In this document: one piece after another, positions 13,533 through 61,887 of the stretch
Layout: each line of letters opens with the position of its first letter
Position numbering within the stretch: position 1 is the stretch's first letter
Origin: Pristiophorus japonicus
Taxonomy: Eukaryota
DNA length: 64,000 nt
NCBI RefSeq assembly: GCF_044704955.1
Contig: NC_091981.1
Span: forward strand, 103,602,001 to 103,666,000
Direction of reading: 5' to 3'
The notes under the pieces: model-generated
What the model saw: only the letters and a program-made list of their open reading frames with translations
Told to the model about the DNA's origin: nothing
The model's database searches: none
Program-made: the position numbers and the translations under genes

Positions 13533-13554
13533 CACGTGACCCGATCCGTCCAAT
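13533..13554 (-). promoter_or_regulatory. Hoxa1 proximal promoter E-box/CCAAT module
   Basis: CACGTG (13533-38), 11-bp spacer, CCAAT (13550-54), ~120 bp upstream of the ATG. Confidence 0.65.
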
Positions 13555-16500
13555 CGCGGGGTCCCCTGCGAAGTTTGCATGCTCTTGCTGGTGATCGATC
13601 ACTGTTTTAGTGGCATTTAAATTACAAACGCTCTTCCATCAAGGTTACGCGCATTATTAGCCCACAAATGCATTATACTTCAAAGCATGCCCGGCAGAAT
13701 GCAGCAGGAATTTATTCAAGATGCACGTACTCTCTTTTGCTTGGGTCTGCAATGGCATTAGTGTTACCACCGATCGCGCATCTATAACGGAGGAATAACT
13801 GGTCTTCTTCCGTACAGCAGCCTCTCCGTCAGGTAAGAAAGGCCGCTCGATGAAATACGTAACATCCAGGATCTAAAGAGCTATCGGAAATGTGTTAGTG
13901 CTGGCGTCGCTTCACAGTGTAAAAAGAATCAGATGTTCTTCTCTCCAGTCTTAGCTATAGCATTGTGGGTGAGCGGCGTTTCTTTCAATAGGACGGAAAA
14001 AGCTATGCAAAGCTGGTCTATTATGTGCCAGACCGCTTCGTGCACTATAATGAAAGAAAATACAGGTAACTGCTGCAGAGTTACATTTCGTTCAGACACA
14101 GGATAGGCTGTGCACATTTATTATTAACCTATTATACCCTCAGTGCTAATCCGTGCAACATAATTCTGAGGACGACCCTCAAAGCAAAGGGTGCAATGAT
14201 TGATTGGATTGAAGAGGTTTTTGATGCAGAGATTTGTATTTAAACTGTGTGTGATATGATGTGCGGTTGTAAAAGGAGGCGCCATGTCTCCACTGTGCAA
14301 TAATGCCACAAGGAAGCAGGCAACAGCCTATCAAGGTTTGGCCTTTGCCTGTACTCAGCTTTCTAGCTATTGGCATGGAAATGAGCAGGCTCTTCAATCG
14401 AACACAGGCTGGTGGGAGCATCGCCTCACGCAAGGGTTACGGGCAGCCAAAGAATCTTTCTATATTGTATTGGCTGCCTGCCTATTTATTCTGGTTGCAG
14501 CGGGAATCAGAATATTTTTATATGAATAATAACATCCCTTGGCTGAAGCAAATGTAAGCAAACGTGGCCGATTGGAAGGCGCTGCCGCCCATCTGTCAGC
14601 TTCCTGTAGAGCCCTCTCCGAGCAGTCGGGGTGGGTGGTGATTTGAGATCAATCTTTTGCACATTAAGAGTGACGCGGATCAGGGTTACAGACAGTAATT
14701 TACTCGGATTAATTAATTATGAGAAACGATGGATAATAGCTCGACTGTAAACAAGCATTGCGAAATGGCGATCACACGTGGACATTCGAGATTATTTCGG
14801 TATAGATTTAGGCGTTGAGCACCAGTGCGATCTAAAAACTCATGAATTAAAATAAATGTCCGATTAAGATTTGTGAAATATTTTTGAACGAGTCTTCCAA
14901 ATAACCCAAATAACCTAACTATAGTAGTCCACGTATCTTTGGACAATGCAGTGGAACACGAGTTGATTGATGTTAATTGAGGCCTGTGTGTGTTTTAATT
15001 ATTAAACGGACTTCATAAAGTGAGCAAAAATCTGTTTAAAAGAAAATGTCACAGGGAAATATTTTTTCAATATTTACTTATGGGCCATGGAACTTTTATG
15101 CACTGTTTGTACAGGTATGATGCTTTTACTCTGTGATCTGTCGATTGAAGTTCAGCAAAACTTCAGTTTAACTCCAATTGAGTAATGGCCTATTTACCTA
15201 TTATCCTTAAGCAGGCAAAATGAACACGGAAATGAATTGCAATGCACCAAGAAAAACACACGAACCCTTTTTTCGGAGTTTAGCGAAATAATATTTCGGT
15301 CGATTCTGTTCGCACTGGTAAATTTTATCGATTTACCTGGAAAATGCATTTTTCGTCTTCTATTAGACGGCAATTAGAAATCCTATTTTCGTGCATTTTT
15401 TCTCTTTGCACTTGCTAGTAATTCGGAACAAATGAAAAGCTTTACTGTAGCAAACAAGTCCGCCATCTTTATTTACTAGGTCTCAACATTCAGTGTAGCG
15501 GAAACTGACTGCTGAAGAAATCTGCATTGGATCGTTTTCGAAAAAAAACATTTAATGTCTTGTGTACTTTTCATTTTGAATTCTACAAAAAAGGCACTTC
15601 ACCCCCTCCCGCAGAGGATTTTTTTTCTTGTGGCAGTTTTCCCAACTATCCTGTGAGATGTCCGCACCCCTCGCCCCCGCACCGTAAACGAAGTGTTGAC
15701 TTTTATTTTAGGGTGATTGCCTTTTCGATTCGCCATTGTGGGCGGCGTGAGAGCCTGTGGTTCAGAGTAACCGGGCGAGCTTCTCGCGTTGTACTTTCGC
15801 GGTAAGGACACATCACCGAGTAACATGCCCATTATGTCGTGTAAAGACTTGTTTGATAGCGACAGCTTATTGACAATGTGTCACTATTTGCCCGTGCGGT
15901 TTGTTTTTAATAGGCAAATGTATCGCTTTCCTTATGCACTGGATACAACAAGCTGATAAAGAAAGTAATAAAAACGCCTCAACACAAAGTCAGTAACACA
16001 GTATGCAGTAAAACGTCCTTCCCTTTATTTCCCTGCTTAATGATTGAACAATTGGAACTCCAGCCCAGCAGTAGCCTCACTGTAAATCCTTACATTGTAA
16101 GTTCAAATTTGAAGTGAGTGCCAGCAGCAGCAATAGAAAGCGCTTTACACTTTACAAGAAACAGTGAAAATGAATTACGACTCAACGCCTACTATTTAGA
16201 AGCTGACAGGGGTTCCCCAGTCCAGGCAAATACGTAAGATGATTTTTTTGTTATGTGCTGCTGCGATTGATCCATTGGATGACATTCTCATTCATAAAAG
16301 GGCTTTGATTTATGAGTTTGGGAAGAATTACATCCAGAGCCAGTCCTGTCACTGCTTACGCAAAAGCCCAACGTGTTTCAGACCGCAACAGCAACATATA
16401 ATGCACCGCGGCTAATATTGAAAGTTTCTGTTGAATCGAAATAAGTGTTACAAGTTCTTCGGACGAGGGGGCATGGAGGGAGAGGGCTGTTACTGGAGGA

Positions 16501-17828
16501 TTAAAAAAAAAAAGAATGGTTGCCTAAAAATCCTAGTGCACAATGAGGATGCATTCCTACAGCTGTTGTTTTATTTATACAAATACTAATGTAATAACAG
16601 GCCAGAATATGCGTTGTGTTTTTATAAAATGTGGGCCAAGATTTCAGATCATGTTTTTGAAGTATTTTTTAAAAAGAATGTTGTTACAAATTAAACATTT
16701 GTGCTGAATAGATTTTTTAAGCGCTGCGCCAGCGCTCTCTCAAAGCGCACTCTTTCTTTTCTTAAAATGAAGTTGTGATTCTAATTGAATAAAATCGTTT
16801 GTCGATATTAAATTTCTAATGTACGATTTATTAGTAAAATAATAAACTGCGTGGTAATGCGTGAGTTTCTTAAGACCAGTTTTTTAAATAGCAGGATAAA
16901 CGGCGCTTAACGGAGTAAAACATATGCGAATTTATTTTGCTGATGATGACTGGCAGCAAGCGAGATAAGGAATAGAGGAATCAGCGTTAAAGATTAGTTA
17001 TGACATCAATAAATAAAGCAGTTTGTTTAATAACAAGCACACATGGACGTGGACACTCCTAAACTTTTTTCCTTCTTTCCTAGATTTTCTGAGTGGTGGC
17101 AGATGTGTCGATGGGTGTGAACTTAAGAAGATTTTTCTGCGAAATATTATATATATGGCATTCCTTTTGCTTTTGTTCAGATTATGAATGTGTTAATACT
17201 AAAATGTAGCGCCACATATTTTGTATAATTTAATAAACGCAATAATAATAGATTTTCCTAGTGCCTGGCTCTGTGTCACAAACAGTTTCGATCAAAGTTT
17301 TCAAACCCAGTTTTATTGTTGTTTCTGTGGAGTCATACAATAAAGAGCCTGAATTGTTTTATTCTTCTTCAATAAATGCTGTTATGAAAAATGTAAAGAA
17401 CGAGACTGACCAGACTGTTCAATTTTATTAATGAATTTATGTCAAAAAGAAATCAAAGGATATTTATTAAGTGAAAATAGTCCTGAGAGAGAAATGCTTC
17501 AGGATAGCTACCTGTAGCGTATAATACTTTGCTCTATCAAATTATTTATGACAATGCACCCTAAAATAATACAAAAGTAAAAGAGGGGAAAGTAAAAATT
17601 GGTCGATTTCTATGCAATAATTTTCATGAGGGACCCATGTATTGCTGGATGACGAGTTATGAAAGAAGGGGCATTAGTCCAAAGATAATAGCGAACTTTT
17701 GCAATTATAGATGGGCTTCGAAAACATTCAAGTTAATTAAAATGAAAAAATACTGACCATTTGAAAGGGACTGAAGGAAAGAAAACGAATTTAAAAGAAG
17801 GCATATTCTGCTCACAGCGACTTTTCAG

Positions 17829-18568
17829 TTAGTAGTTCAAATGCTGCAAATCGATTGTGGTTAGAGTATCCGTAAAAAAGTCAAAACTGTCAGCAGAAAG
17901 ATCCACAGGGCTGTCGAGGGACCCTGGTAAACTGGGCGATACTCCATCTGAAAGCTGTAAGCAGGATTCTGTGGAAAACACGCTAAAATCCTGTAAAGAA
18001 GGGACATCAAGGGCCTCTGGACTGTCATTGTTCAAGCCAGCTGCACAGTTCTGGGCCATTGTTGACAGGCAGTTTTGAACAGTGGGTGACTGCTGATGAA
18101 AATGTTTTAGATTTTTCTCATTGCTGGGTAAAGGCGAAACTGGGAAACTTTGGGCTTCTCCATTGTGTAAATTCTGGGCCTGCTGTTGAGTCAGTGCATT
18201 GGTTTGAAAAGTATAGCCTTCCCTGTCCAAGAGAGCGCCTGCAACATTGTTGATGCTTTGCTCAAAGAGTGACTTCTCTTCGTCATCTTCAGTCTGCCCA
18301 CTGTCCTCCAAACTCTTAAATTTGCCATCTCCGTTTTGGTTTTCTTTGCACTGGGTCTGTCTTTTATGCTTCATACGTCTGTTTTGAAACCACACTTTCA
18401 CTTGTCTTTCAGTCAAATCAAGCAAAGCTGCAATCTCCACCCGTCTGGGTCGACACAGATACTTGTTGAAGTGAAATTCTTTTTCCAGCTCCAAAAGCTG
18501 TGTGTTTGTATAAGCTGTCCTTAACCTCCGCGAGCCCCCGCCTGTATTATCCGGAATTTCATGAGGTT
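17829..18568 (-). CDS. HOXA2: Homeobox protein Hox-A2, exon 2 (homeodomain)
   Basis: [58 protein letters not shown] and the C-terminal [12 protein letters not shown]. Acceptor ttgtag at 18570-18569. The joined protein is 363 aa. Confidence 0.97.
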
Positions 18569-61104: not shown

Positions 61105-61307
61105 CTGTATGGAGGGGAAAAAATGCAAAAGAAATTGAAAAAATAACTAATATTATCAAAGGAAGCATTTTATTCAATTTTCCAATTCAAATAATTGTGC
61201 TGCGTTTAACATAGTAATTAACATATTCATGCACTCTTTACGTAAAGTTGGAACTAAGTGCTGCAGTTAAAGTTTTTTTCTTATTATTTTCGACAAAAAA
61301 TACTCAC

Positions 61308-61737
61308 TAGAACTTGAATTCATTCGTTGCATCCAAGGATAAATTGGAGTACTGTACTTCCGGTCGTTTCCTTCTTCACTTAAAAATTTGTTTTGCGCAC
61401 AATCTGTTTTGTAATGTTGGTCTGAGGGAAAAAAGTCATCCTGGGCTCTATGCTTTCCACTACTGGATGGCGAAACACTGGTTAGATCCTTTTCAGTATA
61501 GAAACAAGAAGCTCCATACTCATACGATGCACGATTACAAGCTATTACTGAGTTGGATTGTTGATAATAACAAGGTGACGAGTAACTCTTGTCCTGGAGG
61601 GTCGTTGCCCCATAGGAAGCTGGAAAGTGCCTTAGAGCATCATACCCCGCTGTATAGAGTGGGATCTGTCCGAGGAAGGAGTCCTGGCCACTGGGCAGTG
61701 AAACAGGGAAAGTAGGGTTCACGAAATACGAACTCAT
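61308..61737 (-). CDS. HOXA6: Homeobox protein Hox-A6, exon 1
   Basis: [28 protein letters not shown] and [14 protein letters not shown] at 61737; donor A|GTGAGT at 61307; 203-bp intron. Confidence 0.96.
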
Positions 61738-61864
61738 TTGCTCCACACTCTGTAGTAATATGATTTGTTATGTATTAGTACACAATGTGGTTTAGCTATT
61801 AGTAGTCATCGAGGTGGTTTGTTTCAGGATGGCCGAGCGCCAAAGCGACAGCAGCAAATATAAC

Positions 61865-61887
61865 CAGCTGATCAGTCTCTGGCCAAT
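61865..61887 (-). promoter_or_regulatory. Hoxa6 proximal promoter E-box/CCAAT module
   Basis: CAGCTG (61865-70), 12-bp spacer, CCAAT (61883-87). Confidence 0.5.

Follow-up and report, generated by a model that had tools for sequence, protein, structure and literature searches.

An E-box lying 10-12 bp 5′ of a CCAAT box is found by genome-wide chromatin immunoprecipitation (ChIP) at sites of USF1/2, MAX and MITF, though not at MYC sites, and this E-box/CCAAT grammar is reported to be widespread, long terminal repeat (LTR) elements included (PMC3730095, PMC4889920, PMC7793273). The cooperativity with NF-Y has been credited to the USF-specific region, USR (as cited in bioRxiv 2026.02.16.706105). 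Among Hox genes, human HOXB4 carries sites of this kind (HXRE-1/HXRE-2), where mutation of ATTGGCT lowers activity by 60-80 % and mutation of CACGTG by 90-95 %, where transcription starts 65-90 bp above the ATG by rapid amplification of cDNA ends (RACE), and where MITF binds without activating while USF1/2 activate (PMC2193192); a requirement of HOXB4 for an NF-Y/USF complex is also described (as cited in PMC3675019). Promoter reporters of mouse Hoxa3, a5, a7, a9 and a11 are weakened by mutation of their E-boxes (PMC9456764). Here we describe an oriented pair of an ATTGG-type box and an E-box in front of each of six Hox genes, Hoxa1 to Hoxa6 (a1 to a6), in a 64,000 nucleotide stretch of the genome of Pristiophorus japonicus (RefSeq assembly GCF_044704955.1, contig NC_091981.1, positions 103,602,001 to 103,666,000), referred to below as the window.

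Because all six genes lie on the minus strand, the pairs read ATTGG, 10-12 bp, E-box and ATG along the genes, the E-box being 5′ of CCAAT on the CCAAT strand in 6/6 modules. On the plus strand these are CACGTG-N11-CCAAT at a1 (13533..13554; ATTGG-N11-CACGTG in gene direction), CACATG-N11-CCAAT at a2 (19617..19638), the palindromic core GTCACGTGAC followed by N11 and CCAAT at a3 (27143..27164), CATGTG-N10-CCAAT at a4 (45824..45844; ATTGGCT on the gene strand), CACGTG-N10-CCAGT at a5 (58969..58989) and CAGCTG-N12-CCAAT at a6 (61865..61887), giving spacers of 11, 11, 11, 10, 10 and 12. Their E-boxes stand 121, 184, 77, 98, 159 and 127 bp above the respective ATGs. A preliminary description of this DNA had placed one such pair roughly 80-190 bp above every ATG; a sequence check reproduced the positions, cores, spacers and single orientation of all six, at measured distances of 77-184 bp. 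An intact CCAAT pentamer is present in five modules (a1-a4 and a6), a5 having a non-consensus CCAGT as it does in mouse, and a USF-type core (CACGTG or CACATG/CATGTG) is likewise present in five (a1-a5), the CAGCTG of a6 falling outside this class despite a USF-type inner flank and a good CCAAT. Only four of the six modules combine both, as a5 has CCAGT and a6 CAGCTG. We classify a1-a4 as predicted full members; a5, which lacks a true CCAAT, and a6, whose core is not of the USF type, are putatively half-degenerate.

The 250 bp upstream of each of the six genes were compared with intergenic tiles and dinucleotide shuffles, rather than with other promoters. The strict pattern CANNTG-N10-12-CCAAT occurs in 5/6 upstream regions, against 0/241 background tiles on the same strand and 1/241 on the other, with a shuffle P(≥5/6) of 6e-11. 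With the relaxed pattern (CCA[AG]T) all six regions match, against 1/241 tiles on each of the two strands, and with one free mismatch allowed in CCAAT P is still 1e-7. When spacers of 0-30 were permitted, the six promoters still showed only 10, 11 or 12 on the module strand, and if as many as 10 % of promoters are assumed to carry the oriented module, 5/6 still has a P of 5.5e-5. An inner E-box flank of A[CT], which is USF-like, accompanies 5/6 modules compared with 66/558 E-boxes window-wide (P 3e-4), and an NF-Y-type 3′ flank of CCAAT accompanies 6/6 modules by a loose and 5/6 by a strict definition, compared with 46/134 CCAATs window-wide (P 0.002); both flank consensuses were picked after the modules had been seen, so that these two comparisons are not blind. 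The E-boxes of a1-a4 have an inner T flank and that of a5 an outer one. The modules of the window are non-randomly placed, with a definite sequence, order, spacing and flanking context.

We interpret the pair upstream of the six genes as a proximal promoter platform for NF-Y together with a USF-type basic helix-loop-helix (bHLH)-zipper, a reading to which we assign a probability of about 0.78. NF-Y would bend and open the proximal promoter and a USF-type dimer would bind between NF-Y and the gene, at a distance of one helical turn, probably cooperatively through the USR, with transcription expected to start a few tens of bases downstream of the module. The module may act as a ubiquitous basal platform, tissue specificity being conferred by enhancers that act upon it, and other bHLH-zippers, TALE half-sites at a2 or NF-Y/YY1 overlap may contribute. 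We infer that the modules are occupied in P. japonicus. Elements common to Hox genes or to several phyla include the Hox4/Dfd intron element and the downstream promoter element (DPE) core promoters of fly Hox genes; these resemble the pair in being shared features and differ in the factors and positions involved. The modules resemble the NF-Y/USF composite in how the two sites are ordered along the CCAAT strand, in their spacing and in their flanks (PMC3730095, PMC4889920, PMC7793273); the window differs in that its copies, known from sequence alone, precede six tandem paralogues and are half-degenerate in two. The preliminary description named USF and NF-Y, which co-bind at about this spacing, and an NF-Y/USF promoter module is supported by the ChIP-derived 10-12 bp rule, by the flanks and by the experiments on orthologues and paralogues. 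HOXB4, a paralogue of a4, shares with it the gene-strand ATTGGCT and an E-box shortly above the ATG, but its core is CACGTG where the window a4 has CACATG on the gene strand, and the HOXB4 work covers one gene (PMC2193192). We also considered the DECA-CCAAT element (TALE/NF-Y/Sp2) of developmental genes, in which, as in the modules, CCAAT has a second site some 11 bp to its 5′ side (bioRxiv 10.64898/2026.02.16.706105; PMC6023610). Its motif, GAnnGAC-11-CCAAT, is different: GAnnGAC is found exactly 11 bp 5′ of CCAAT in 0/6 modules, the window as a whole has no such combination with a spacer of 10-12 bp, and this candidate was rejected.

Mouse promoters were compared by eye using the full primer table of PMC9456764. 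The E-boxes of a3 and a5 in the window are orthologues of those mutated in mouse within the promoters discussed there as Hoxa internal ribosome entry sites (IRES). Mouse Hoxa3 keeps the N11 arm, with 6/11 spacer letters identical and 5/11 changed, and mouse Hoxa5 is identical to the window in its spacer (10/10) and its CCAGT (primers, PMC9456764). In the text of the same paper a CAAT box is discussed only next to the Hoxa9 E-box, where the orientation is opposite (three occurrences, NF-Y none), and the mouse a1, a2 and a6 leaders are described as having no E-box, whereas a1, a2 and a6 of the window carry the pair (PMC9456764). Judged from the length of the mouse a1 leader and from the mouse a6 leader primer, the a1 and a6 pairs probably sit just above the leader. 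The mouse Hoxa1 leader measures 64-98 nt by cap analysis of gene expression (CAGE; PMC8892498), so that, given a leader of similar length, a1 transcripts would start 23-57 nt below the E-box, and a match of 20/22 letters to the 5′ end of the mouse Hoxa6 leader as annotated, again compared by eye with the primer, begins 28 nt below the a6 E-box (61816..61837, minus strand).

Comparison with related loci outside the window was limited to paralogy group 2: with a2 exon 1 as query, 16 loci were obtained from a metagenome scan; scans of genome contigs and viral contigs with a4 exon 1 and a2 exon 1 returned no relatives. One locus, L001, is teleost hoxa2b-like and retains ATTGG (5/5), the E-box (6/6) and 9/11 spacer letters at N11, within an upstream block that is identical to the window at 66/80 positions. 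L002 is without upstream DNA. The 14 invertebrate Hox2/proboscipedia (pb) loci were grouped into 8 lineages, L003/4 (ant-like), L005, L006 (louse-like), L007, L008-13 (cockroach-like), L014 (mayfly-like), L015 and L016, these affinities being the likely ones; L009, with 81 bp upstream, was excluded and belongs to the L008 group by its protein. For L005 a homologue search gave no match, and a profile search reached no more than 40 % identity among near-full-length matches. Under a definition set beforehand from the window only, which asked for a USF-type core, an [AG]T flank and a spacer of 10-12, 2/8 invertebrate lineages match, L005 and L014, both at N10, where 0.010 are expected (shuffle P 3.6e-5). 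When the definition was widened after the data had been seen, a spacer of 13 added the L008 group (3/8) and spacers up to 30 added L003/4 at 24 (4/8). In all four the sense strand reads ATTGG-N-[AG]TCACGTG, whereas 0/8 lineages match in the reversed order and 0/8 on the opposite strand, and all four pairs have GTCACGTG and NF-Y-type 3′ flanks. Their E-boxes lie 406 (L005), 243 (L014), 1197 (L008 group) and 1302 bp (L003/4) from the ATG. The pair may predate vertebrates, since one of the same orientation precedes Hox2 in some invertebrates: the group 2 module is likely to be older than the vertebrate-protostome split, and for paralogy group 2 alone we lean modestly towards a bilaterian age. The long spacers of L003 (536-570) and L008 (1546-1569), 24 and 13, differ by 11 bp or one helical turn, and the two insect pairs may therefore share a phase.

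In-frame read-through of ATTGG-N10-CACGTG in a protein model would appear as IGxxxHV. This motif is present in 4/212 proteins, two mayfly-type and two pb models of the horseshoe crab Tachypleus, lying upstream of the conserved start in both Tachypleus models and in one named mayfly model, while none of the other IG-HV spacings between 0 and 8 occurs among the 212 (shuffled expectation 0.06); such models are suggestive only as support for an N10 module. A vertebrate Hoxa2 read-through, P0189, mirrors the a2 region of the window and serves as a positive control. P0302, a protein like that of L005, agrees with an 11-bp version when the pattern is loosened, but these looser, other-frame patterns are noisy, as matches also occur at spacers of 8, 9, 14, 15 and 16 besides 11. 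The public Hox2/pb models P0123, P0163, P0002 and P0189 have N-terminal extensions that seemingly read through promoter DNA, a possible mis-annotation.

A number of observations weigh against a common NF-Y/USF platform. TATA-like elements are not enriched below the modules, octamers with at most one mismatch to TATAWAWR being found only at a3 and a6 against a background of 18 %, and a shared TATA box is unsupported. Conservation among vertebrates does not single out the motifs, since mouse a5 and L001 also preserve the spacer and the sequence around it. Four of the 8 invertebrate lineages have no pair, although the misses in L007 and L006 are weak because only 485 and 1473 bp are available above their ATGs, and the pairs at N13 and N24 are beyond the 10-12 rule and as far as 1.2-1.3 kb upstream of the ATG. 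The 2/8 result under the window-fixed definition has a P of 0.022 if 3 % of promoters are assumed to carry the module and is unremarkable at an assumed 10 % (P 0.19), and with the loose E-box of the preliminary description 2/8 lineages match at P 0.022. The L014 pair lies inside a long open frame continuous with pb, a local frame switch relative to the near relative P0001 arguing that this upstream frame is non-coding, and a further search of 124 added proteins (113 with the core motif) gave no new IGxxxHV. In mouse, knock-down of USF1/2 lowered only Hoxa9 among the Hoxa reporters, those of Hoxa3/5/7/11 being unaffected (PMC9456764), so another bHLH may be the reader.

Candidates for such a reader are TFE3, ARNTL and BHLHE40/41, which have ChIP peaks on the mouse Hoxa E-boxes (PMC9456764), and MITF, which obeys the 10-12 bp rule (PMC7793273) and binds HOXB4 (PMC2193192). 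The E-box could be read mainly by TFE3/MITF, ARNTL, BHLHE40/41 or MAX, or be kept for TALE, YY1 or posterior-Hox sites, leaving USF a minor role. Hox/Pbx and Meis sites have been described in the Hoxa2 proximal promoter (PMC5831782) and NF-Y/YY1 overlap at Hoxb4 (PMC3976385); moreover a TGACA overlaps the a2 pair at either end, TGTCATTGG recurs in a2, L001 and the L008 group, and GTCGTAAA overlaps the CCAGT of a5. We consider a minor role for USF rather unlikely, as USF1/2 and not MITF activate HOXB4, the cooperative USR is found only in USF, and the DECA-CCAAT geometry is missing from the modules and the window. A more plausible objection, to which we nonetheless give less than even weight, is that a5 and a6 are not members at all, a5 being a lone E-box beside an unrelated conserved motif and a6 a CCAAT and TATA promoter with an incidental CAGCTG. 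The CCAAT pentamer is near-invariant and CAGCTG is not a USF core. CCAGT breaks the pentamer of a5, its GT starting GTCGTAAA, CAGCTG abuts a TATA-like octamer at a6, and a relaxed match is also found in intergenic DNA at 55891. Both genes however keep the order, orientation and 10-12 spacing at per-promoter shuffle rates of 0.3 % and 0.9 %, and the 3′ flank of a5 is of the NF-Y type, as the inner flank of a6 is of the USF type.

How the pair came to precede six paralogues is a separate matter from what reads it. Independent gain, or turnover, of a common NF-Y/E-box grammar at each Hox promoter would reflect shared requirements rather than descent, and we rate this only slightly below an even chance. 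The grammar is widespread, LTR repeats included, and the paralogous promoters lack similarity outside the motifs, where ungapped mean identity is 0.26-0.28 against 0.256 expected by chance, which weighs against common descent; a MAFFT alignment of the six brings a1-a4 together on the motifs and misaligns a5. In Hoxa9 of mouse and human it is the sense strand that carries E-box-N10-CCAAT, so that the orientation is opposite, and mouse Hoxa11 has no ATTGG 10-12 bp above its E-box, both of which speak against a uniform cluster-wide module (primers, PMC9456764). A single orientation in 6/6 has a two-sided chance of only about 0.03, yet the same orientation is shared by the six window genes, the ATTGG of HOXB4 and 4/4 invertebrate Hox2 pairs, and flank similarity would be expected to be lost after more than 500 million years. 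The cluster-wide grammar put forward in the preliminary description is supported for a1-a4 and weakly for a5-a6, but not as a uniform feature in view of Hoxa9 and Hoxa11. That it was passed on through the tandem duplications behind the cluster is possible and unproven, given the chance-level identity outside the motifs and the reversed Hoxa9. A stronger version, in which the oriented ATTGG-N10/11-TCACGTG was an ancestral Hox promoter platform at Hox2 of the vertebrate-arthropod ancestor, was copied by tandem duplications and is still read by NF-Y and USF-type factors, appears doubtful to us.

The suggestion that E-box variants grade promoter strength found no support, and we think it improbable. 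The a2 variant is kept in L001 and that of a5 in mouse, so variants can be gene-specific and stable, but the cores alternate (CACGTG at a1, a3 and a5, a variant at a2, a4 and a6) with no ordered change along the cluster, and HOXB4 has CACGTG where a4 of the window has CACATG. CATGTG and CACATG are single CpG-deamination products of CACGTG, and CpG decay would explain the CACGTG of invertebrate Hox2 versus the CATGTG of vertebrate a2 on the gene strand. The alternation between odd-numbered and even-numbered genes is probably chance at n = 6. Least probable of all is that the conserved stretch works at the RNA level, as an IRES-like part of the leader, instead of as DNA. IRES activity in circular RNA (circRNA) reporters has been claimed for Hoxa3, a5 and a9 in a paper that calls promoterless assays artificial (PMC12048685), and the a3 pair, below an acceptor-like AG, could enter long leaders. 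Against this, the pair also precedes a1, a2 and a6, whose leaders are reported without IRES activity (PMC9456764), at a1 and a6 it is placed above the transcription starts mapped or annotated in mouse, its spacing fits a protein-DNA rule, and its spacer letters vary freely across phyla.

Several modules have further features. A second CCAAT lies on the gene side of the a3 E-box at 10 bp (27128..27132, minus strand), making the module symmetric, with the corresponding mouse Hoxa3 arm at 14 bp (primers, PMC9456764), and another lies on the gene side of the a2 E-box at 14 bp (19598..19602, minus strand), differing by one base in L001. Just above the a3 module a pyrimidine-rich tract ends in AG (27182..27210, minus strand) and resembles a splice acceptor, so that long a3 isoforms would carry the module in their leader. 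The TGACA overlapping the a2 pair presumably represents a TALE half-site-like sequence. TGTCATTGG is located at 19630-19642 in the window, at ~2815-2823 in L001 and at ~1542-1558 in the L008 group, and in the cockroach-like pb of L008 ATTGG is flanked by inverted TGACAG half-sites. GTCGTAAA, which we take to be a posterior-Hox-type motif, lies at 58988..58995 on the plus strand, the last two letters of the a5 CCAGT beginning it, and has only 2 copies in the window on both strands. The TATA-like octamer of a6 (61855..61862, minus strand) is 2 bp below the E-box, has 1 mismatch to TATAWAWR and is weak alone given the 18 % background. The a6 leader contains a five-codon upstream ORF (open reading frame; 61792-61809, minus strand) that agrees with the tetrapod-wide Hoxa6 upstream ORF (PMC8892498). 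An intergenic CACGTG-N11-CCAGT between a4 and a5 (55891-55912, plus strand) has the promoter-module orientation and may mark an unannotated start or be chance, and CATGTG-N11-CCAAT at ~2044-2065 (minus strand), about 10 kb 3′ of a1, is in the opposite orientation with no nearby long ORF.

Six-frame translation of the window identified six Hox genes, each with two exons and each on the minus strand, which represent paralogy groups 1-6 and have coding spans at 11986..13411 (a1), 17829..19432 (a2), 24132..27065 (a3), 44629..45725 (a4), 57495..58809 (a5) and 60845..61737 (a6). Their collinear homeoboxes and group-specific hexapeptides are those of a HoxA cluster for groups 1-6; the labels are presumed from group signatures, and a2 was additionally compared with named Hoxa2 proteins. 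Assignment to HoxA follows from a match to HOTAIRM1 conserved region 2 (Rfam RF01976, HOTAIRM1_2; 16121..16338, plus strand; 127 bits, gathering 37) between a1 and a2. An Rfam search of the window in evalue mode gave nothing besides HOTAIRM1_2, with no match to miR-10 at gathering score and none to HOTAIRM1 region 1. The a1 module may lie in a divergent (bidirectional) promoter. An assembly gap of 133 N (36224-36356) falls between a3 and a4.

Elements of this type were already known, including at HOXB4 and several Hoxa genes. The modules before a1, a2 and a6 and the same-orientation pair at invertebrate Hox2/proboscipedia appear to be the new part: for the oriented pair across a1-a6, as for the pair ahead of invertebrate Hox2/pb, we found no description in the open literature, judged mostly by titles and the starts of abstracts, and subscription papers on HOXB4/HOXB7 may compare paralogues. 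The accessible parts of PMC11802806, PMC3227721 and PMC6416258 make no mention of the oriented Hox pair. In the portion of the literature available to us, Hox regulation has been studied mostly through enhancers, and a basal platform shared across paralogues has so far been described gene by gene. A common NF-Y/bHLH pair would explain enhancer sharing and competition among neighbouring Hox promoters. It also bears on the dispute over Hoxa IRES elements, as genes classed as lacking an E-box carry the pair, for a1 and a6 probably just above their leaders; should the cluster-ancestral version be true, the split of mouse Hoxa genes into 'IRES' and 'non-IRES' would merely reflect whether the annotated leader includes the promoter. 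If the invertebrate matches hold, the pair would be one of a small number of cis-elements that have held their place between arthropods and vertebrates.

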